Source: an uncultured Candidatus Saccharibacteria bacterium
Lineage (GTDB): Bacteria; Patescibacteriota; Saccharimonadia; Saccharimonadales; CAZICT01
Length of the DNA stretch: 64,000 nucleotides
Direction of reading: 5' to 3'
Assembly: GCA_964537935.1 (NCBI GenBank)
Contig: CAZICT010000001.1
Location: 134,870 to 198,869 of the forward strand
This document shows positions 56,111 to 63,631 of this stretch, in pieces; position 1 is the first letter of the stretch, and each line of letters starts with the position of its first letter. A program made the position numbers and the translations under genes. Below the pieces are notes generated by a model. That model saw only the letters and a program-made list of their open reading frames with translations, was not told the DNA's origin and made no database searches.

Positions 56111-56572
56111 ATGGCCAAGAAGAAAAAGCAAGCTCCCGGGGTTATCTCTAACCGGCGGGCAAGATATGATTATGAACTCGACGATACGCTGATTGTCGGT
56201 GTTGTGCTTAATGGTGCCGAAACAAAATCACTGCGGCGCGGTCATGGTCATTTGCGCGGCGCTTACGTTACCGTCAAGGACGGCGAGCTATGGCTCACCA
56301 ACTCTACTATAGTCGGCGATAATTCTATAAGCATCGATGAATCTGACCAGACACGTCCACGTAAACTACTTGCTAAGCGCAAACAAATCCAGGAACTTGA
56401 GGCCGCTAAACAACAAGGAAAGACTATCGTACCGCTAGAGTTTTTAACCAAAGGCAGGTTTATAAAGCTGCGCCTAGCTGCCGGTCGCGGCAAAAAACAC
56501 TACGACAAACGGCAAGCTCTGAAGGAGCGTGACGCTGCACGTGATGCCAGTCGCGTGCATAGACAGCGGTAG
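56111..56572 (+). CDS. smpB: SsrA-binding protein
   Basis: ISNRRARYDYELDDTLIVGVVLNGAETKSLR ... LLAKRKQI ... KHYDKRQALKERD, typical of SmpB. Confidence 0.95.
   Translation: MAKKKKQAPGVISNRRARYDYELDDTLIVGVVLNGAETKSLRRGHGHLRGAYVTVKDGELWLTNSTIVGDNSISIDESDQTRPRKLLAKRKQIQELEAAKQQGKTIVPLEFLTKGRFIKLRLAAGRGKKHYDKRQALKERDAARDASRVHRQR
56510..56556 (+). repeat. Direct repeat copy 1 (inside the smpB 3' end)
   Basis: CGGCAAGCTCTGAAGGAGCGTGACGCTGCACGTGATGCCAGTCGCGT recurs exactly 180 nt downstream with 3 substitutions. Confidence 0.85.
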
Positions 56573-56689
56573 CGGTTTGTTGTCGTAGTGTAACTACGAT
56601 ATTCGAGCGATCAGCAAGAATATATGCCGAGCCCAAAAGTAAATCATTCGTTTTTAAAGCTAAATTTTCTTGGCGCGAAGCTATACAAG

Positions 56690-56736
56690 CGGCAAGCTCT
56701 GAAGGAGCGTGACGCCGCCCGTGACGCCAGTCGCGT
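56690..56736 (+). repeat. Direct repeat copy 2 (displaced smpB 3'-end-like sequence)
   Basis: CGGCAAGCTCTGAAGGAGCGTGACGCCGCCCGTGACGCCAGTCGCGT. It sits in a 43-codon ORF (ATG ~56622) ending ...KLYKRQALKERDAARDASRVLRPR*. Confidence 0.85.
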
Positions 56737-56755
56737 ACTAAGACCAAGATAAAAT

Positions 56756-57892
56756 TTATTCCTCTTCGCTAACGGTTAGGTCTAAGCCTTCTTGTTTGTG
56801 GTCGCGTTCTGCAAAATGTTTAATGATGTTTTCAAAAGTCGTTTCGTAGCTTTCCACCATTTTTTCGGTTGAAAAGTTGCGCTGCACGTGGCGGCGGCAG
56901 GCTTTGCGGTCAATTTGGTCAATTTTTTTGACTGCACTGGCCATTTCTTCAACTGTATCAACCACAAAACCGGTGCGGCCATCAACCACAACCTCTGGTA
57001 CCGAACCGCGATGAAACGCCAAAACTGGCGCTCCGCAGGCCATAGCTTCAACCATCGTCAACCCAAACGGCTCTTCCCACTGAATAGGAAATAGTAGCGC
57101 CTTGGCCCGTTTATAGTAATCAGCTAGCTTAGCGCGTTCAACAAAGCCGATGTGCTTGATCTGATCTCCTAAATAAGGCTTTGCCACTTCGTCAAAATAC
57201 TCTTGAGCTGCCGGGTACAACATACCGACGATTAATAGCTTGTTGTTGGTTTCTAAAGCTACCTGTACTGCTTCTCTTAAACCTTTTTCTGGTACGATTC
57301 GTCCGGAAAACAGCAGGTAGTCATCGTGTTCTTCAGAGAAGGGAAACATGTCCAAATTGATGCCATTGTAGACCGTCCCGGCGTATGGCAGGTTCGGCCT
57401 GGGTTTACGTTGGCTGTCTGATATAGAAATGAAGTACTGGTTGTGATGTAGGTACATGCCAAAGATGTCGCACTTCCACGGCGTCAACGGGTCATGCAAA
57501 GTAAAAGCTACCGGTACGTCCGGATATATTTGAGTAAACGGCAAGGCTATTTCCGGATGGTGAAAATGGAGCAGGTCGTAGCGGCCTTCGTGGGCAGCTT
57601 TAAACATTTCACGCGCCAGGAACATATCCCACATCGCCGGCACGTTGTTCATTTGTGATTCGACGTTATAAAGAAAGTCCACCCATTCGTCTTGATTTTC
57701 AACGAGAGTCCTCAGACCCATGGTTTGAACCGCAGTGTGCAAATGAGTGCCTTCCGGACCGTAAAACTCAACGGCGTGTCCGCGGTCAGCCAGGCCTTCG
57801 CTAATATCAACTGCAAGATCAATCGGTGCGTACACCATATCAGAAGGACGAGGTACCGGCAGGTAGCCTCGAACCATTGTAGCTATTCTCAT
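56756..57892 (-). CDS. Glycosyltransferase family 4 (GT-B)
   Basis: FSGRIVPEKG and the E-x7-E region EPFGLTMVEAMACGAPVL. I start at MRIATMV (57892). The ORF track extends to 57934. Confidence 0.85.
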   Translation of the reverse strand: MRIATMVRGYLPVPRPSDMVYAPIDLAVDISEGLADRGHAVEFYGPEGTHLHTAVQTMGLRTLVENQDEWVDFLYNVESQMNNVPAMWDMFLAREMFKAAHEGRYDLLHFHHPEIALPFTQIYPDVPVAFTLHDPLTPWKCDIFGMYLHHNQYFISISDSQRKPRPNLPYAGTVYNGINLDMFPFSEEHDDYLLFSGRIVPEKGLREAVQVALETNNKLLIVGMLYPAAQEYFDEVAKPYLGDQIKHIGFVERAKLADYYKRAKALLFPIQWEEPFGLTMVEAMACGAPVLAFHRGSVPEVVVDGRTGFVVDTVEEMASAVKKIDQIDRKACRRHVQRNFSTEKMVESYETTFENIIKHFAERDHKQEGLDLTVSEEE

Positions 57893-58010
57893 ATCCCAGT
57901 AGTTCTCTCGTTTTGTTAGCAATACCATTGTCACATTAAATCTTTTGATTGTAAAGCTTTAAGGGGTAAGAAGTTGCTGTTTATTGACTTTTAGTATATA
58001 ATTATTAATA

Positions 58011-58559
58011 ATGAGACGTTTTCTGGGGGTCATGCTCTTGGTTGTTTACGCATGGCTTGGCGCATCTATAATTAATGCTTTTTCGTCAACGCCATCAGGC
58101 GCTACTGGCGTTACGCTGTCTGCCCAAACGCCGCATCAATTTGCTTCAGTCAAAGCTACTAAACTTTTGGAGGAAATCAATGCGGTGCGCGCTGGGCAAA
58201 ATTTGCCTGAATTAGCGGCCGATAGTGAGCTTGAAGCCATAGCCAGGCTGCGGGCTGACGATATGGTTGAGCAAAAATATTATGCACATCAAAGCAGTTC
58301 GGGTAAGTTTTACTTCGATTTATTAGAAGACCATGGACTGCGCCAGGGGTACAGCTGTGAAAACCTCGACCTATCAGATAAAGAAAATGTACGCTTTTAT
58401 TTGAATGATTGGCTCACCAGCCGGGAAGGTCATCGTCAGTGCATGCTGAATAGCCGGGTAAGCAAGGTGGGTATATTTGTTACAGATTTCCCGAACCTCG
58501 GCTCAATGCCGGCTAATACCCAAAAGCAGTACCTGGTCGTAGCCATATTTCAGGAGTAA
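58011..58559 (+). CDS. Secreted CAP/SCP-domain protein
   Basis: Signal peptide, then the pattern LEEINAVRAGQNLPEL ... RLRADDMVEQKYYAHQS ... SCENL ... SREGHRQCML. Confidence 0.8.
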   Translation: MRRFLGVMLLVVYAWLGASIINAFSSTPSGATGVTLSAQTPHQFASVKATKLLEEINAVRAGQNLPELAADSELEAIARLRADDMVEQKYYAHQSSSGKFYFDLLEDHGLRQGYSCENLDLSDKENVRFYLNDWLTSREGHRQCMLNSRVSKVGIFVTDFPNLGSMPANTQKQYLVVAIFQE

Positions 58560-58634: not shown

Positions 58635-58709
58635 TCCCGGGTAGCTCAATGGTGGAGCAAGAAGCTGTTAACTTCGAGGTTGCCGGTTCGAGTCCGGCCC
58701 CGGGAGCCA
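58635..58709 (+). tRNA. tRNA-Asn (anticodon GUU), CCA encoded
   Basis: Cloverleaf: TCCCGGG / GCTC-AATGGTG-GAGC / AGAAG-CTGTTAA-CTTCG / AGGTT / GCCGG-TTCGAGT-CCGGC / CCCGGGA-G-CCA. Confidence 0.92.
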
Positions 58710-58711
58710 AA
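58694..58711 (+). repeat. att-type direct repeat, copy 1 (3' end of tRNA-Asn)
   Basis: CCGGCCCCGGGAGCCAAA. Confidence 0.8.
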
Positions 58712-58839: not shown

Positions 58840-58857
58840 CCGGCCCCGGGAGCCAAA
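58840..58857 (+). repeat. att-type direct repeat, copy 2
   Basis: An identical 18-mer, CCGGCCCCGGGAGCCAAA, 146 bp downstream of copy 1. No tRNA body precedes it. Confidence 0.8.
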
Positions 58858-59064
58858 CCAAGCAGTGAAAAACCCTGACCGGGTTCCGTGACCAAAAGTC
58901 ACGTTCACTCCTTAGTCAGCCAAGAAAGCAAAGTGCCGATTACAAGGCACGACAGGTTAGAACCGCCAGAAACGGCGGTTCTTTCCTTTCCACCCTGTTA
59001 ATTGGTTCCTGAGTTGACCGGTTTGCCCTATGGGGATTGTGCAGCCGAAACCCAGACCGGGTTC

Positions 59065-60072
59065 CTAGACCGACATCACCTTTTGAAGATTCAGTAGGGG
59101 CTGGGTTTCCGCTGTCGCCAACAGCTGATTTGCCAGTATACGTTTGCGTGCCTTTTCCACTATGGCCTGTCGCTTCAGCCCTTTTTGGCTGGCTAAAATC
59201 ACGCGCTCTGGAGCTATGGATATCCTGAGCTTTCTACCGTTCAGGATGACCCTACACTCTGTGCTCCCCAGAATAGCTTCCGCTGTCTTTACGGCCTCGT
59301 TGGCCGAAAAGACATCTCGCTGTAGCTGGGTGTTTATCACGACCGTATTTATGCCGGGATTATTCCTGAGGTACTCAACAAGCTTTACCCGCTGGTGATC
59401 ATTGACCGCGTAGACATGCGGGATTACCGGCACGCCCAGCCTACTTAGCTCATGTACGTACAAGAGTGACTTATTTAGGTTAATCAGCTGCCCCATGGGG
59501 CACTCGTGCAGGAATAGTGAAAAGTTCATGCCGGTAACAGCATAGAATTTACCCTTAGCTATCTCTTGGAAAAGTGCTATTTCATGCCTATCAAACCATA
59601 GTTTTTCAATGGCAACATCTATGTAGCTGCTGAATAACACAACCTTCTTGCCCTGGAAAACAGGCCTATCTAATGCAGATAGAGATATGCGAACACCGTC
59701 ACGCATGTAGTAGTGGCCCCAGCGCAACTTGGGCTTAGTGCTCAGTATATCCTTGAGGTTTATGCCAACTATTTCTGGGAACCGCTCCGGTTCCCAGTCA
59801 AAACATTCCGGCGGGATCACGACTAAGTCATCCGGTAATGTCGGCGACCCGGTTGCTATGGTTTTATTGGCAAATTCCAGCCCACCAGCGTCTGCTATAT
59901 ACTCCTGCAGGTCGGCACTATGGCAGTCCACGATGCCTCGGTTGTCGCCGGGGCATCGATCACGCACGAGTGCTTTTTCATCTGCACCTATGAGGCCCGG
60001 GACACATGAATCCGAGTCACAGTACATGCTCGCGAACAGCGAGGACTGATTACTAGCGCCTAATCTCCGCAT
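59065..60072 (-). CDS. Hypothetical 335-aa protein: N-terminal Cys cluster plus a DUF4417-like body
   Basis: The N-terminus has CDSDSC...C...C. The central and C-terminal region (VVLFSSYIDVAIEKLWFDRHE ... AVTGMNFSLFLHECPMGQLINLNKSLLYVHELSRLGVPVIPHVY) resembles the DUF4417 pattern as I remember it. This has not been checked against any database. Confidence 0.6.
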   Translation of the reverse strand: MRRLGASNQSSLFASMYCDSDSCVPGLIGADEKALVRDRCPGDNRGIVDCHSADLQEYIADAGGLEFANKTIATGSPTLPDDLVVIPPECFDWEPERFPEIVGINLKDILSTKPKLRWGHYYMRDGVRISLSALDRPVFQGKKVVLFSSYIDVAIEKLWFDRHEIALFQEIAKGKFYAVTGMNFSLFLHECPMGQLINLNKSLLYVHELSRLGVPVIPHVYAVNDHQRVKLVEYLRNNPGINTVVINTQLQRDVFSANEAVKTAEAILGSTECRVILNGRKLRISIAPERVILASQKGLKRQAIVEKARKRILANQLLATAETQPLLNLQKVMSV

Positions 60073-60403
60073 AGCGCACGCCCTTCTTGTCCATAACCTC
60101 GGCCTCTTTGTATGTGTAGCCTAGGCCACCACACTCTTGCACCATCTTGTGCTGTGCTGCGGTAAGCTGTCCAGCAATCGTACCTACGGCGGTTTTTAAC
60201 AGTCTTTCGTCTAGGGTCAGTTTTGTACCGACCGGTATAGTTTGGTCACTTAGTTTAGCGTCAAAAGCCAGCGGGCAGATGTTATTTATGTCCACTGACT
60301 GCGGGCTGGAACCGGCACCGCCAGTTCCCATGCCTACGCTACTTGATTTTGGCCTATTAATGACAGGCCGGTCATTCGCCTTACGGCTTCCGGATGATCC
60401 CAT
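60053..60403 (-). CDS. Hypothetical 116-aa protein, first gene of the two-gene operon
   Basis: The N-terminal ~45 aa are Gly/Ser/Pro/Arg-rich. The C-terminal ~70 aa look globular. It overlaps the downstream gene by 20 nt. Confidence 0.55.
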   Translation of the reverse strand: MGSSGSRKANDRPVINRPKSSSVGMGTGGAGSSPQSVDINNICPLAFDAKLSDQTIPVGTKLTLDERLLKTAVGTIAGQLTAAQHKMVQECGGLGYTYKEAEVMDKKGVRYAEIRR

Positions 60404-60710
60404 AGTGGGTACCCTCTATCCTTTCGTGGCCATGGTAACTTGACCGTTATCGTTATGGTTTGGTAGGATAGAGGCATACGAGGGTTCGCTTCTTGTATGC
60501 CTGAGACGCCAGTTACCGCTGGCGTTTTTGCTATCTTACCACCCCTGTTTATTTGTACCGGCGATTTACGGATTTTTGTCTCTCGTAACACTCGGATAAA
60601 TTTATCGTAACACTGTATGCGGACGATTACAACCATTTATCCGTAAAATTATTACCGAATTGTTGTAAATTATTGAAGGGTGTGCTACAATTAGAGTAAT
60701 CAAAGAAAGG

Positions 60711-61451
60711 ATGCAGATGGGTGTTGGGAAGAATCTTACCAACCTGCGCAAGGCTTCTGGCCTGAGTCAGGATGATGTTGCTCGTGCCCTAGGGATTACG
60801 AGGCCAGCATACAAACAACTTGAAACTGACGGGCGTGAGCCATCGATTGCTGAGATAAATGCACTGAGCGAGCTGTTCGGTGTGCGTGTCGAGGACTTGA
60901 CCAGTACATCCATATTACACAAAACCATCATAACCATGACAAACTGGGATGGCATAGAACAGAGCGTCGATAAGATTAAGTACAAAAACCTTATGCTTTA
61001 TCTTGCCAGTAGAGTTGGCGCGTGGCCAAATGTAGGTGAAACGGTATTCTATAAGCTGATTTATTTTATTGAAACCTTATCTTACTCCAAGAATAAGAAG
61101 ACTATTACTGGCGAGCGATTCCGTAAACTACAATACGGTCCCGTACCAGCATCTTTCCAAACGCTCACGCAAGAAATGATTAACAGTGGGGAGTTGGACA
61201 AAGTTCAGGGCCGGTACTTTACCTACATGCAGACAAAATACTTGCCACGAGTGGAAGCAACCGGATTAACTCCAGAGGAGCGAACCATTATAGATACGAT
61301 CATCAACAAGCTGGGCAGCGAATCTGCTACTTACCTGTCTAACTTGTCACACGAAGACAAGCCTTGGCTTGACGCAGAAGACAATGACTACGTTGATTTG
61401 TCGCTAATTAGTGATACCGACCCTGAAGCCGCTCAGAAAATGGGACGTTGA
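60711..61451 (+). CDS. HTH-XRE regulator fused to a DUF4065 (Panacea/SocA-type antitoxin) domain
   Basis: N-terminal HTH (LRKASGLSQDDVARALGITRPAYKQLETDGREPSIAEINALSELFGV), then KYKNLMLYLASRVG...FYKLIYFIETLSY...TGERFRKLQYGPVP, typical of DUF4065. Confidence 0.8.
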   Translation: MQMGVGKNLTNLRKASGLSQDDVARALGITRPAYKQLETDGREPSIAEINALSELFGVRVEDLTSTSILHKTIITMTNWDGIEQSVDKIKYKNLMLYLASRVGAWPNVGETVFYKLIYFIETLSYSKNKKTITGERFRKLQYGPVPASFQTLTQEMINSGELDKVQGRYFTYMQTKYLPRVEATGLTPEERTIIDTIINKLGSESATYLSNLSHEDKPWLDAEDNDYVDLSLISDTDPEAAQKMGR

Positions 61452-61457
61452 TAGCAC

Positions 61458-62162
61458 CTACTTTCTCTTGCTAATGCGCGCTATCTCTAGCGCACCATTT
61501 CGTAGCTGGAGTTTGGTTTTTATGCCAGTCGCAAATACCGTTCGCTCGGCTTCAGTACCTCGAACAAGTATGTACCTTGAGTACTCCACGAACGGTATGT
61601 CTAGCGGTTGCTCTAGGCTGTAGTGCTCCAGCAGGGTCTTAGTTACTTGGTAATGCCGCTCTACCTTTGACCGCAATTTATCGCTAATATTTATGTCATC
61701 ATGGTTCTTTTCAATAAACTCTTGCAGTAGCACGCATAAGTCTTTTTCGTTGATATATTTTTCCGTGCAGTCTCGATCTACTCGGCGTGTGCAATTGTAG
61801 TAGACGTGACGGTTGAACTCGCCATTCTTCAGCTTTTTGAACTTTTCCTGTGCAGTAAACTCGGCACCGCATTGACCACACTTTATTAGTCCACGGAATG
61901 CAAACTGCTTCGTTCCCCATAAGCCTTTATTGATGCCGCGTGTCTGCTGGATTTCATCAAACAGCTCTTTGGATATCAGTGGCTTGTGCGCTCCTTTGTA
62001 CCATTTCGCATCTGGACCCTCCGGGTATTGAAATTCTCCGTAGTAGAACGGGTTCGTTAGCATCGCCAGTAGACTGCTGATTGGTACGGGCTTACCGCTT
62101 TGTCGGTACGGTGAATGCAGCCTATCCAGCAGCAGGGACGGCGTTTGCCCTCGACAAGTTCC
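61458..62162 (-). pseudogene. Large serine recombinase, 5'-truncated (catalytic resolvase domain missing)
   Basis: Recombinase-domain and zinc-ribbon motifs are present (LTNPFYYGEF ... CGQCGAEF ... YYNCTRR). The frame stays open upstream of the annotated Met (…GKPVPISSLLAMLTNPF) to a stop at 62163-62165. No S-R catalytic N-domain is present. Confidence 0.75.
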
Positions 62163-62452: not shown

Positions 62453-63631
62453 ATGAAGCATATGAAAGCAGTGTCAAAAGCGGCAAATAGAACAAAAGGT
62501 GTATTATCGCCGCCGATTAAATGGCCTGGCGGCAAAACCCAGGAATATCCGTTTATAAAGCATCTGATACCTGATTTCGACCGTTATATTGAGCCGTTCT
62601 TTGGGGGTGGTGCAATTTATTTCATCCTACAGCCAAAAAAAGCCGTAATAAACGATTTTTCCGGTGATTTAATGGACTTTTACCGTTTTTTAAAGGGTGA
62701 TTACGTAACCGATGAGCTGGCAGAGCAGCTTTATGACTATGTTTATAACTGGGAAAAGATTCCAAAATTCATTGCGCTTTTCAATAAAGAACTTTCTGAC
62801 ATTTACGACGATGTTCGGAGCGGCCAACTCGCAAATTCAGAACTTAACCAACGGGTCGAAAGGTTGATTCGCAGCCAAGAAAACAACTTTAACGGGCTGT
62901 TTTCAGCAAGTTTTTGCATTGATCGCTCTAACCTTGAAAAGCAAATAGTCAATAACATCGTCTCCAAGCTTTCGCGTACCGCAGCCATAGAAAAAAAGCA
63001 CGGAACCTTGAGCCGCGCTGACCTGGAAAAGAATTTCGAAACCGCATTCCGGAGCGGCTTTTATATGCATTTTCGTGACTTGATGAATAGAAAAATCGGC
63101 AAAGGCGAGATATCGGCCGCTAAATATACCGCCAATTATTATTTTGTCCGTGAGTTTTGTTACGGTGCTATGTTCAGATACAACGCGGCCGGTCATTTCA
63201 ATATTCCATACGGCGGCATCGCCTATAATCGCAAGGATTTCCGTAAAAAAGTGGACCATATTTTATCGCCCGAATTTCGTTCGATATTTAACGGCACCTC
63301 GATTGAGAACGGAGATTTTTCTGAAATACTTAATAAATACGAAGTTGGCGAGGATGACTTTATTTTTCTTGATCCGCCTTATGATAGCGACTTCAGCAGT
63401 TACGACAACAATGGCTTCGGCATGGAAGATCACCGGCGACTTGCCGAGTTTATTCATAATACAAAAGCAAAATGTATGCTGCTGATTAAGGAAACACCGT
63501 TCATTCAATTCCTCTACAAAGACGCACCCGGCATTAGCATAGAAAGTTTCGATAAACGATACTTATATAACGTCAAAGGCCGCAATAACCAGGACGCAAA
63601 CCATCTTATAATATACAACTATAGCTTATGA
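62453..63631 (+). CDS. Dam-family (D12 class) N6-adenine DNA methyltransferase, enlarged (392 aa)
   Basis: IKWPGGKTQ, the EPFFGGGA SAM-binding motif, and the catalytic DPPY (FLDPPYDSDF). Confidence 0.9.
   Translation: MKHMKAVSKAANRTKGVLSPPIKWPGGKTQEYPFIKHLIPDFDRYIEPFFGGGAIYFILQPKKAVINDFSGDLMDFYRFLKGDYVTDELAEQLYDYVYNWEKIPKFIALFNKELSDIYDDVRSGQLANSELNQRVERLIRSQENNFNGLFSASFCIDRSNLEKQIVNNIVSKLSRTAAIEKKHGTLSRADLEKNFETAFRSGFYMHFRDLMNRKIGKGEISAAKYTANYYFVREFCYGAMFRYNAAGHFNIPYGGIAYNRKDFRKKVDHILSPEFRSIFNGTSIENGDFSEILNKYEVGEDDFIFLDPPYDSDFSSYDNNGFGMEDHRRLAEFIHNTKAKCMLLIKETPFIQFLYKDAPGISIESFDKRYLYNVKGRNNQDANHLIIYNYSL

Follow-up and report, generated by a model that had tools for sequence, protein, structure and literature searches.

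A toxin-less HTH–Panacea gene opposite a divergent 116/335-aa operon and a structured small RNA in Saccharibacteria

Introduction

Panacea/DUF4065 domains are known from the PanA antitoxins of PanAT systems (Kurata et al. 2022, PMC8832971). Such a system is defined by a conserved two- to three-gene architecture with the partner at ≤100 nt, present in at least two species, and 343 PanA proteins of the published set carry an N-terminal HTH fusion (PMC8832971). For Saccharibacteria, the PanAT dataset lists HTH–PanA together with toxin group T14 (PMC8832971). The mechanism of Panacea in multidomain proteins is debated: a sensory role in multidomain antitoxins has been proposed, but not demonstrated, and HTH–Panacea alone fails to neutralise in one system (Ernits et al. 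2023, PMC10440598).

Regulators of another kind are the switches composed of an XRE repressor and an M78 metallopeptidase, namely CapH/CapP, ImmR/ImmA and DdrO/IrrE (bioRxiv 10.1101/2022.04.27.489752; PMC13228613). CapH/CapP-type regulators are encoded on the opposite strand, upstream of the associated defence operon (bioRxiv 10.1101/2022.04.27.489752). Here we compare with both kinds of system an HTH-XRE–Panacea gene from a 64,000-nt stretch of Saccharibacteria DNA, referred to as the window.

Results

The regulator carries both predicted domains and resembles PanA in its protein architecture. The initial annotation had proposed an HTH-XRE fused to DUF4065, and an HMM search recovered both: residues 11–63 match Pfam HTH_3 (E 7.7e-13) and residues 114–219 match SocA_Panacea (PF13274; E 2.7e-19, 70.6 bits versus a cut-off of 25.7). 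The Panacea domain retains the family motifs PNVGET, YKLxYF, QYGPVP and SHxDxPW. The HTH also matches the PADLOC models capH (E 1.1e-8), HTH_VI and RmrA, all at ~1e-8. The SocA equivalog model scores well below its threshold (NF047745, 25.1 bits versus 190), no SocB-like gene was found in the neighbourhood, and by Pfam the module of the window lacks an M78 domain. Translation probably starts at ATG 60717, giving 244 aa, because the Shine–Dalgarno sequence AAAGG (60706–60710) is contiguous with ATG 60711 and public gene calls contain precisely the 244-aa form (P0283).

Like PanA, the protein combines a Panacea domain and the family motifs with an N-terminal HTH fusion, but neither it nor its close homologues have a partner within 100 nt. 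The ORF map agrees with the earlier view that a co-directional neighbour is absent, and all genes within 100 nt are convergent, consisting of a recombinase remnant. Unlike in PanAT systems, what is conserved beside it is a divergent operon of two genes at a distance of 307 nt, which has a predicted promoter and a putative antisense RNA of its own; the extent of the 307-bp region common to both, noted previously, was confirmed (Table 1).

Table 1. Features of the regulator locus and its surroundings (window coordinates)
Feature	Position	Strand	Basis or remark
tRNA-Asn(GTT), islet insertion point	58635–58709	+	3′ end repeated downstream
Terminator-like hairpin 3′ of the 335-aa gene	58933–58950	−	pattern match only
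335-aa enzyme-like protein gene	59065–60072	−	divergent DUF4417-superfamily member (predicted)
116-aa protein gene	60053–60403	−	new small family
Shared control region, 307 bp	60404–60710		three predicted promoters, small-RNA gene, operator-like repeats
Predicted small-RNA promoter	60440–60469	+	TTGACC-18-TAGGAT, TG extension
Conserved structured small RNA	60465–60540	+	fold and covariation
Possible outer helix of small RNA	60465–60471 with 60531–60537	+	predicted pairing
Small-RNA hairpin 1	60473–60501	+	predicted fold
Small-RNA hairpin 2	60506–60525	+	then TTTTT 60526–60530, terminator-like
Candidate operator at operon promoter	60583–60614		two TCGTAACACT around palindrome GATAAATTTATC
Predicted 116/335-aa operon promoter	60604–60632	−	consensus prediction only
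Candidate autoregulatory operator	60641–60668		overlapping inverted repeats CCGTAAAATTATTACCG and TTACCGAATTGTTGTAA, TTAC-N9-GTAA type
Predicted HTH–Panacea promoter	60663–60691	+	TTGTAA-17-TACAAT, TG extension
HTH-XRE + Panacea (DUF4065) regulator gene	60711–61451	+	246 aa from ATG 60711
HTH part of regulator	~60741–60899	+	Pfam HTH_3
Panacea part of regulator	~61050–61367	+	Pfam SocA_Panacea PF13274
Large serine recombinase remnant	61458–62063	−	Recombinase and Zn_ribbon_recom domains only
Dam-family DNA methyltransferase, islet cargo	62453–63631	+	domain match

The divergent operon encodes two proteins whose ORFs share 20 nt. The 116-aa protein displays an N-terminal MGSx..RKxNDxxRINxP motif and, beyond a Gly-rich linker, a C-terminal domain (~70 aa) that contains two conserved Cys. 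The search yielded 34 distinct homologues. A 116-aa gene is present in all 335-aa loci with sufficient flank, and every time it immediately precedes the 335-aa gene and overlaps it. Neither the 116-aa nor the 335-aa protein has a significant match in Pfam, NCBIfam, PADLOC or PHROGs, and profile searches of PDB sequences with the two families matched none. The AF2 model of the 116-aa protein was unusable (pLDDT 49.7, pTM 0.33). By these searches the protein constitutes a previously undescribed family.

For the 335-aa protein, AF2 predicts a TIM-barrel-like fold with a Cys cluster at the N-terminus (pLDDT 89.5, pTM 0.86). The nearest folds are of the TGT/DpdA type, but the likeness is weak (TM ~0.4, E ~1e-3), the top Foldseek matches being tRNA-guanine transglycosylases and phage queuine tRNA-ribosyltransferase-like proteins (E 1.1e-3, TM 0.43). 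The window protein itself gives no direct PF14386 (DUF4417) match in Pfam at E ≤ 0.01; its family resembles DUF4417 by profile, which reaches P0216 and P0217, two proteins passing PF14386 (40.4 and 34 bits versus 28.9), and by tblastn, in which the 335-aa protein matches Streptomyces plasmid genes annotated DUF4417 (E 5e-8). Taken together, modelling and profile links place it in the DUF4417 superfamily as a divergent member, whose predicted TIM barrel weakly resembles the TGT/DpdA fold. Its invariant residues include D107, D151, E155, N182/S184, E189/C190, K200, Y220 and N246/Q248. It is the probable payload of the cassette, and this payload is probably nucleic-acid-modifying or base-excising. 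We know of no function assigned to DUF4417. In known members a ParB-like domain is either fused to the protein or encoded ahead of it, whereas the window partner is the 116-aa protein; on Streptomyces linear plasmids, DUF4417 genes adjoin ParB-like and replication-relaxation genes. A phage origin of the payload was rejected, as relatives were found neither in 2.9 million IMG/VR viral contigs nor among 50,697 phage records.

A conserved small RNA is encoded in the control region, in antisense orientation to the leader predicted for the 116-aa gene. Its plus strand folds at −33.3 kcal/mol (z −5.1), compared with −23 (z −1.4) for the minus strand. In the alignment, 94.9% of cells are paired and nine pairs have changed on both sides, which none of 500 shuffles reached. 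The covariance model matches only beside the 116-aa gene (67–95 bits), with no match among 78 outgroup loci, and Rfam returned no match at E ≤ 1. The minus strand was disfavoured as a functional RNA, given its weaker fold and the conversion of near-invariant G–U pairs into C–A mismatches. Hairpin 2 is termed terminator-like because a 7-bp GC-rich stem read from the sequence is followed by TTTTT; the pattern scanner left it unflagged. A transcript of ~55–70 nt is predicted, with its start near 60474–60477 and its end near 60530. Judged by covariation, the element is a structured RNA, unmatched in Rfam and previously unreported.

Three promoters are predicted in this region, an arrangement common to nine lineages. 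The small-RNA promoter (TTGACC-17/18-TAG(G/A)AT) is kept in all nine lineages scanned, with TAAGAT in L088. The operon promoter combines a −35 TTGTAA (reverse complement of 60627–60632) with a −10 TACGAT (reverse complement of 60604–60609) and a TG extension; it scores 8/12 plus TG in the window. Like the other two it is a consensus match, and little is known of the promoters of this phylum. Transcription from its predicted start at ~60597 would yield a leader of ~190 nt crossing the small-RNA gene, and a matching predicted minus-strand promoter lies 60–90 nt past the RNA terminator in 9/9 lineages. Two copies of TCGTAACACT (60583–60592 and 60605–60614) and the palindrome GATAAATTTATC (60595–60606) overlap the −10 and +1 predicted for the operon; in L003 (GGATATTTTTATCC) and L124 (GGTATAAACCTATTATACC) this −10 is likewise overlapped by inverted repeats. 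The repeats of the second candidate operator sit at the −35 of the regulator's own predicted promoter, and TTAC/GTAA inverted repeats are also found in L003, L096, L086 and L001.

We then compared the neighbourhoods of regulator homologues. The close clade was sampled mainly by exact-protein look-ups and a metagenome scan, and genome-collection matches, mostly distant, formed the outgroup; sampling is uneven, some loci derive from related populations, and identity comparisons are taken from tblastn and database tables. All close homologues examined (56–98% identity) are divergent from a 116/335-aa pair and have no co-directional partner; the pair is their travelling companion each time. This recurrence in each homologue indicates that the layout is no chance juxtaposition. 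The initial annotation had considered that a toxin was lost with the recombinase rearrangement, leaving an orphan. Relatives L001–L005 refute this option, because their recombinases are intact (401–461 aa) and yet the toxin-less arrangement is identical. Across the clade, conservation is 61–89% in Panacea versus 58–82% in the HTH; the regulator does not look like a decaying relic, since Panacea is kept as well as the HTH, and the comparison indicates that the Panacea domain of this toxin-less clade is under purifying selection.

HTH–Panacea proteins of 32–39% identity, from many phyla, differ from the close clade: among the matches listed, most have an overlapping co-directional toxin and thereby the partner arrangement of PanAT systems, with an overlapping downstream toxin gene in 54 of 78 out-clade loci, chiefly RelE-like. 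A co-directional toxin beside homologues, which the initial annotation had named, jointly with non-toxic divergent genes, as counting against its claim, is a property of distant homologues and not of close ones. The window clade is best read from these comparisons as a derived toxin-less lineage with a strongly conserved Panacea domain. Toxin loss may still be true at a deeper evolutionary depth, because the 32–39%-identical proteins mostly have such a partner. The 116-aa protein was also considered as a relocated copy of the downstream toxin and rejected: BLAST gave no match, and hhalign of the 34-member 116-aa family against a 51-member RelE-like family gave a probability of 0.2%.

Viewed from the payload, the 116/335-aa pair is the constant unit and the gene opposite varies. 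In a census of 38 distinct 335-aa loci, a divergent HTH–Panacea occupies this slot in 18, representing three lineages with a mutual identity of only ~27%; a divergent XRE + Peptidase_M78 pair occupies it in 6/38 and a co-directional HTH–M78 fusion in 3/38 (L110, L112, L118). M78 peptidase genes are present in sister loci L099, L103, L104, L108, L109 and L117. In L126 the slot is taken by a 75-aa protein that belongs to no known family, beside a 335-aa protein 77% identical to that of the window. Altogether an XRE-type regulator is found at the slot in 27 of the 38 loci; 3–5 payload loci have none of these regulators, which counts against a regulatory reading. In the L100/L127 lineage, HTH–Panacea has its own co-directional 135–141-aa gene, and the slot could therefore be a mere landing site for TA or regulator cassettes.

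The locus shares with CapH/CapP and ImmR/ImmA an XRE HTH gene divergent from an operon across a common promoter region, and sister loci of the payload carry the exact XRE + M78 pair or an HTH–M78 fusion; an association with defence-type neighbourhoods is common to them as well. Unlike these systems, the window has no M78 peptidase and instead carries Panacea fused to the HTH, so derepression there cannot proceed by M78 cleavage of the repressor. The alternation of slot genes favours CapH/CapP- or ImmR/ImmA-style transcriptional control over an obligate protein-level antitoxin, and in contrast to PanAT systems the partner is kept when non-Panacea regulators replace the Panacea protein. The other option of the initial annotation, with the divergent operon as the partner, is supported as a conserved functional linkage (18/38 loci, three lineages), whereas an obligate protein-level antitoxin is disfavoured by the non-Panacea slot genes elsewhere.

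Loci with different regulator types share 83–90% identity over the small-RNA gene and 36–56% just past ~60550. Because homology breaks just past the small RNA, the operon promoter and operators appear to travel with the regulator, as a cognate repressor–operator cassette should show. Identities to the window are discordant between regulator and payload: 82% versus 63/54% in L001, 61% versus 72/71% in L003 (recombinase 86%) and 83% versus 49% in L124. These phylogenies therefore indicate cassette exchange, not tight co-evolution. HTH–Panacea is most likely not an orphan, but one of several interchangeable Saccharibacteria regulators facing the 116/335-aa operon and the small RNA.

The truncated convergent recombinase described earlier was found as a 201-aa ORF, 6 nt from the regulator with no terminator between. 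It aligns to residues 190–398 of an intact 401-aa relative, and the Resolvase catalytic domain, whose active-site serine characterises large serine recombinases, is therefore missing; recombinase homology continues to 62102, and no remnant of residues 1–189 was found within the window. An 18-nt segment of the tRNA-Asn 3′ end (58694–58711) is repeated at 58840–58857, and the module adjoins the same tRNA in L003/L004 and L126. The methyltransferase gene is followed by an HNH nuclease gene just past the window end. As far as gene content reveals, the cassette sits in small tRNA-linked islets with restriction-modification genes, some with a large serine recombinase.

Discussion

Our preferred reading, held with roughly even confidence, is that HTH–Panacea serves as a dedicated repressor/sensor switch of the 116/335-aa operon and not as a classical antitoxin. 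In this conserved cassette, the genes for the 335-aa DUF4417-like enzyme and the 116-aa protein point leftward, and the antisense small RNA and HTH–Panacea rightward. The XRE HTH would bind as a dimer to the inverted repeats of the control region, with site 1 at the −10/+1 of the operon promoter and site 2 at the −35 of its own promoter; occupancy of both would repress the operon and the regulator gene. Panacea would be the signal-receiving, protein-binding part, filling the place taken by the CapP/ImmA-type M78 peptidase in sister loci. Upon a trigger it would lift repression; alternatively, it might bind the payload proteins as feedback. The small RNA, predicted to be constitutively promoted, would act by antisense on the long operon leader and so restrain the operon a second time. 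Negative control at two levels implies that leaked payload would be harmful, and toxicity is inferred on this basis. As in hok/sok-like type I TA systems, a short, strongly promoted, terminator-ended RNA would lie opposite a long 5′ leader, according to the predicted promoters; unlike in these systems, the leading gene does not encode a small hydrophobic peptide and a putative protein repressor is present too.

The rival closest to this repressor/sensor switch, with which it overlaps and is compatible, is a divergent three-gene TA system in which Panacea would bind and neutralise the 116-aa protein, the 335-aa protein or both, leaving the HTH to autoregulation alone. Panacea is documented as the partner of dozens of unrelated toxins, which it neutralises by binding them directly (PMC8832971, PMC10440598), three independent HTH–Panacea lineages came to adjoin the same payload, the M78/ImmA-type proteins that occupy the slot in other loci likewise count as antitoxin hubs (RosmerTA), and double negative control by repressor and antisense RNA suggests a toxic payload. 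We nevertheless consider a protein-level antitoxin unlikely: the payload is kept with Panacea-free regulators, including the 75-aa protein beside a 77%-identical payload, the trees of regulator and payload disagree, and divergent transcription breaks the stoichiometric coupling that type II systems need. Moreover, the L100/L127 Panacea protein already has a co-directional partner, the 307-nt distance breaks the ≤100-nt spacing rule of the PanAT definition, and no DUF4417 partner was found in the accessible part of the PanAT paper's datasets. The same discordant trees fit a hotspot in which self-contained XRE-type cassettes land by coincidence between recombinase and payload and HTH–Panacea regulates only itself, as do the several unrelated slot cassettes, among them a complete bicistronic HTH–Panacea with a small gene (L100, L127). 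This coincidence appears highly unlikely, given an XRE-type regulator at this position in 27/38 distinct payload loci, the fixed orientation of the divergent regulator types, and a Panacea domain conserved without a partner of its own; the payload's predicted promoter also lies within the swapped segment, so that any landing cassette would bring the promoter.

The recombinases raise a different possibility, that of an ImmR- or CI-like life-cycle repressor of an integrative islet, whose operon would serve excision, directionality, replication or transfer and be derepressed on induction. A large serine recombinase is adjacent in 14/51 loci in four different arrangements, and L107–L109 carry a co-directional 116–335–recombinase string with 19–77-nt gaps behind a divergent XRE + M78 pair, the form that ImmR/ImmA switches classically take in ICEs and prophages. 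tRNA-Asn adjoins the module in three genomes, recombinase identity in L003 (86%) goes with that of the payload (72/71%) rather than that of the regulator (61%), and the DUF4417 genes of Streptomyces linear plasmids have ParB-like and replication-relaxation genes as neighbours. Yet ~70% of payload loci have an intact payload and no recombinase within 2–9 kb, the recombinase-free payloads of L127 and L124 are flanked by housekeeping genes, and in the window all three genes and the RNA have stayed intact beside a dead recombinase. No known directionality factor, moreover, resembles a conserved TIM-barrel enzyme, and the viral contigs and phage records contained no match; a life-cycle role is decidedly improbable on this evidence. 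Finally, an orphan antitoxin that lost its toxin and is now functionless or a generic transcription factor would agree with the missing co-directional partner in the window and with the canonical antitoxins among the nearest out-clade relatives (overlapping downstream toxin in 54/78 loci, among the matches listed). This explanation is scarcely credible, as the toxin-less layout is held across 56–98% identity and with intact recombinases, Panacea conservation equals HTH conservation, and synteny with the payload is fixed.

A conserved HTH–Panacea clade without an operonic toxin constitutes a natural test of the sensory idea, sharpened because the clade swaps with CapH/CapP-type XRE + peptidase switches before one payload. 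More tentatively, and with a good deal of doubt, the 116/335-aa pair and the antisense RNA might form an effector module, toxic or anti-phage and so far undescribed, around a nucleic-acid enzyme of DUF4417/TGT-like type, with Panacea as the switch's sensor and not its neutraliser, swappable with CapP/ImmA-type peptidases. On this reading, it would represent the first Panacea domain in a divergent repressor–operator circuit and offer a functional handle on DUF4417. The payload ties this uncharacterised superfamily, which is frequent in phages and plasmids and often accompanied by ParB-like domains, to a two-gene unit, presumably tightly repressed, in the restriction-modification islets of ultrasmall epibiotic bacteria. 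Should the payload prove to be a defence or addiction enzyme directed at nucleic-acid bases, it would represent a new effector type; should it serve the serine recombinase, a new accessory-factor class. The inverted repeats of the control region are of two kinds, GATAAA/TTTATC-like and TTAC-N9-GTAA, which weighs against the repressor/sensor switch: HTH–Panacea may bind just one of them, and a second DNA-binding factor may act beside it.

Domain architecture and surroundings of the regulator

The regulator ORF is real, and Pfam assigns both halves of the HTH–DUF4065 fusion proposed in the initial annotation: residues 11–63 form an XRE-type helix-turn-helix (HTH_3, E 7.7e-13) and residues 114–219 a Panacea/DUF4065 domain (PF13274, E 2.7e-19, 70.6 bits; cut-off 25.7). 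Translation likely starts at the second ATG (60717), giving 244 aa: the sole Shine–Dalgarno-like AAAGG (60706–60710) abuts the first ATG, and a protein of precisely this length is present in public gene calls. Other elements of that annotation were also recovered: no co-directional gene lies beside the regulator in the window, 307 bp separate it from the divergent 116-aa gene, the TCGTAACACT and GATAAATTTATC repeats are present, and the 3' end of a convergent truncated recombinase lies 6 nt past its stop. The 116-aa and 335-aa genes overlap by 20 nt. Aligned to an intact relative of 401 aa, the recombinase remnant covers residues 190–398; the catalytic Resolvase domain has left no trace in the window.

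Features of the regulator locus (window coordinates unless stated; promoters are predictions)
Feature	Position	Strand	Remark
335-aa gene	59065–60072	−	Divergent from regulator
116-aa gene	60053–60403	−	Divergent from regulator
Small-RNA promoter-like site	60440–60469	+	Strong; TTGACC-17/18-TAG(G/A)AT
Structured small RNA	60465–60540	+	Own promoter-like site
Hairpin 1	60473–60501	+	
Hairpin 2	60506–60525	+	Followed by TTTTT (terminator-like)
Operon promoter	−35, reverse complement of 60627–60632; −10, reverse complement of 60604–60609	−	
Regulator promoter	60663–60691		Third promoter
HTH-Panacea regulator ORF	60711–61451	+	Pfam domains
Recombinase remnant ORF	61458–62063	−	Convergent; only Recombinase and zinc-ribbon domains
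OmdA/YdeI-family ORF, 99 aa	62057–62356	−	Overlaps 5' end of recombinase remnant by 7 nt
Dam-family methyltransferase	62453–63631	+	
249-aa HNH protein	L132 4802–5551		On the contig's continuation (L132), just outside window

The regulator and recombinase stops lie 6–16 nt apart in the window (61452–61457) and its relatives, with no terminator-like hairpin found between them in either; read-through from the regulator promoter would enter the recombinase gene antisense, making transcriptional interference possible. The OmdA/YdeI ORF stands in place of the missing catalytic domain, recombinase homology stopping at 62102, and marks the deletion or replacement junction.

A toxin-less clade

Hit lists for the 246-aa and 335-aa proteins contain many contigs of matching length, and inspection of the loci accounts for this. 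In every locus encoding a close regulator homologue (56–98% identity; L001–L007, L086–L098 and L124, all Saccharibacteria/Patescibacteria by source names), the travelling genes are a divergent 116-aa-like/335-aa-like pair. Loss of a toxin in the course of the recombinase rearrangement is therefore rejected: five loci with an intact recombinase of 401–461 aa (L001–L005) retain the same layout and likewise have no co-directional gene beside the regulator. Loci were sampled unevenly and in part non-independently, and genes in the retrieved loci were called as simple ORFs.

An alignment-based outgroup scan with one genome per species returned at least 78 distant HTH-Panacea genes from many phyla (32–39% identity). 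Among the matches listed, a co-directional gene of ~110–135 aa from a single family with a weak RelE match follows in 51 of 78, mostly overlapping the regulator gene by 4–23 nt; further partners are MazF/PemK in two and a PIN domain in one. These loci are textbook operons of the Panacea toxin–antitoxin system (PanAT), and the published dataset of Panacea antitoxins (PanA) records such HTH-PanA/T14 pairs for Saccharibacteria (PMC8832971). With co-directional toxins prevailing in the outgroup and absent from the close clade, the toxin-less state of the window's clade is therefore derived. The Panacea domain is nevertheless in use, being conserved as much as the HTH (61–89% versus 58–82% identity to the window across the clade).

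An exchangeable regulator slot

The slot facing the pair was compared across 38 distinct 335-aa loci. It holds a divergent HTH-Panacea gene in 18, a divergent pair of XRE HTH (103–110 aa) and Peptidase_M78 (M78; 158–169 aa) in 6, and a co-directional HTH-M78 fusion (360–372 aa) in 3; none of these was found in the remaining loci with flank to judge. Three lineages, of only ~27% mutual identity, make up the 18 HTH-Panacea genes. The divergent XRE+M78 arrangement is identical to the published layout of CapH/CapP-like regulators of defence operons and of ImmR/ImmA (bioRxiv 10.1101/2022.04.27.489752), and the window HTH matches the PADLOC capH, HTH_VI and RmrA models at ~1e-8.

Regulator and payload phylogenies are discordant, as identities to the window illustrate: 82% for the L001 regulator, with 63%/54% for its 335-aa/116-aa proteins and 62% for its recombinase; 61%, 72%/71% and 86%, respectively, for L003; and 83% for the L124 regulator with 49% for the 335-aa protein, recombinase being absent. 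Between loci of different regulator types, intergenic identity is 83–90% over the small-RNA gene and drops to 36–56% just past ~60550, whereas within one regulator clade it stays at 63–83%. The exchanged cassette is thus the regulator gene plus the stretch of control region that carries the predicted promoter and operators.

One locus with neither HTH-Panacea nor an M78-type regulator, L126, encodes a 335-aa protein 77% identical to the window's. Between its intact recombinase and the pair, in place of the HTH-Panacea gene, lies a 75-aa protein (L126 7056–7283, −) with no Pfam match, which may be a further regulator type. The HTH-Panacea lineage of L100 and L127, the third, retains its own co-directional gene of 135–141 aa, overlapping the regulator 3' end (L100 6170–6595, L127 7190–7597). 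These products have no Pfam match and a pattern that is RelE/ParE-like by eye; with its regulator, each such gene would form a canonical PanAT pair occupying the regulator slot.

Control region and small RNA

The control-region plan, with a strong plus-strand promoter-like site ahead of the two hairpins, is common to nine lineages, every promoter and operator assignment being a prediction. A minus-strand promoter-like site lies 60–90 nt past the small-RNA terminator in all nine; from its position in the window, an operon leader of ~190 nt would cross the small-RNA gene antisense. The TCGTAACACT repeats and GATAAATTTATC palindrome overlap the predicted operon −10/+1; in L003 and L124, inverted repeats likewise overlap this element. 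TTAC-N9-GTAA inverted repeats overlap the −35 of the regulator promoter and recur in four other lineages.

The small-RNA region folds at −33.3 kcal/mol (z −5.1) on the plus strand versus −23 (z −1.4) on the other. Across 18 distinct aligned sequences, 94.9% of cells are paired and nine pairs changed on both sides, a covariation reached by 0 of 500 shuffles; slid controls pair at only 30–47%. Near-invariant G-U pairs fix the strand, and the compensatory changes support both the predicted structure and the plus-strand assignment. About 20 loci retain the element next to the 116-aa gene. Its covariance model matches only there (67–95 bits), including loci outside its training set (L100, L124, L126 and L127), and never in the 78 outgroup loci; Rfam holds nothing resembling it.

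An outer helix (AGGATAG/CTATCTT, 60465–60471 with 60531–60537) also shows compensatory changes. The 5' arm of this helix falls on the predicted −10 hexamer, so a transcript from that promoter should lack it. GGATA(G/A)-like boxes recur at the ribosome-binding site of the 116-aa gene (60412–60421) and the operon-promoter palindrome (60593–60606); together these sequences could be protein-binding boxes instead of an RNA helix. Three XRE+M78 loci (L103, L104 and L108) carry a different conserved element, similarly placed upstream of their 116-aa genes: GGTAAACAAAGGGTCG, a hairpin AUUACAC-N-GUGUAAU with apparent compensatory changes, and GTTTTGTTTA. It may represent a second RNA type for the 116/335-aa operon.

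Payload proteins

The 335-aa protein has no match in Pfam, NCBIfam, PADLOC or PHROG. Its family profile retrieved 458 cluster representatives among 1.84 billion proteins, with distant members exceeding the DUF4417 (PF14386) threshold, and tblastn matched DUF4417-annotated genes on 26 Streptomyces plasmids (23–25% identity, E down to 5e-8); in the two plasmid records inspected, this gene stands after ParB-like and replication-relaxation genes. The AF2 model is confident (pLDDT 89.5, pTM 0.86), and its nearest folds, weak at TM ~0.4, are tRNA-guanine transglycosylases in PDB and phage queuine tRNA-ribosyltransferase-like proteins in BFVD. In our reading, the protein is a DUF4417-superfamily enzyme with a TIM-barrel-like fold, possibly acting on nucleic-acid bases.

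Wherever the flank is long enough, the 116-aa gene immediately precedes the 335-aa gene. Its product represents a new small family (34 distinct members), marked by a conserved N-terminal MGSx..RKxNDxxRINxP motif, a linker rich in glycine and two conserved cysteines in the C-terminal domain; it yielded no usable predicted structure. Kinship with the outgroup toxins was rejected, profile comparison finding the two families unrelated.

A candidate repressor of the divergent operon

In the best-supported reading, to which we give about an even chance, the HTH-Panacea protein acts as cognate repressor on both the divergent 116/335-aa operon and its own gene. Panacea would form the signal-receiving, protein-binding half, taking the position held by the M78 peptidase in sister loci; the payload would be harmful when leaky, and the antisense RNA would act as a second brake on it. 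The repressor reading agrees with the sensory role proposed for Panacea in multidomain antitoxins (PMC10440598). It is also compatible with a genuine divergent three-gene toxin–antitoxin system, the other possibility raised in the initial annotation, where the payload proteins would be neutralised by Panacea. Such a system, which we consider unlikely, is weakened by the variants that lack Panacea and by the disagreement between the trees. An ImmR-like life-cycle switch, with the payload working for the recombinase, is quite improbable, as recombinase is absent from most payload loci. Coincidence at a hotspot is very unlikely, and a functionless orphan would surprise us greatly.

The case is more interesting than an orphan antitoxin, yet not a new category. 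The HTH-Panacea fusion has been catalogued before; the new points are that it is coupled, in a fixed divergent arrangement, to a DUF4417-like two-gene payload, that CapH/CapP-type modules are interchangeable with it, and that an unreported RNA accompanies them.

Genomic context

The module adjoins tRNA-Asn in the window, L003/L004 and L126. Past 64000, an HNH nuclease gene follows the Dam methylase and ordinary chromosomal genes then resume, so the islet is only ~6–7 kb. The methyltransferase and HNH protein are probably a type II restriction–modification (R-M) pair carried as cargo. Flanking cargo elsewhere is likewise restriction–modification or defence-type, including HaeIII R-M, a PLD-SNF2 protein with an MmeI-like enzyme, a Type ISP enzyme, type I R-M, and DUF6996/6997 with a methylase. 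Of 51 loci, 14 have a serine recombinase nearby; four arrangements occur, among them a co-directional 116–335–recombinase string.

The tRNA-Asn 3' end is duplicated exactly over 18 nt (58694–58711 and 58840–58857, 146 nt apart). In L003 the module begins at the tRNA end itself; relative to that locus, the window therefore carries 146 additional bp, flanked by two att-like copies. A 24-nt direct repeat (88%) lies between the tRNA and the 335-aa gene (58870–58893 and 59048–59071), its second copy spanning the 335-aa stop codon. A second copy (88%) of the final 60 nt of smpB lies 180 nt further downstream (56505–56564 and 56685–56744), and between smpB and tRNA-Asn lie a glycosyltransferase gene (56756–57934, −) and a 182-aa gene (58011–58559), both absent there from L003; this looks like another insertion scar. 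On a further Saccharibacteria contig (L087 1–5377), the 116/335 module adjoins two DUF87/TraG/VirB4-like ATPase genes and a Bro-N protein, neighbours that suggest a conjugative or T4SS-related element.
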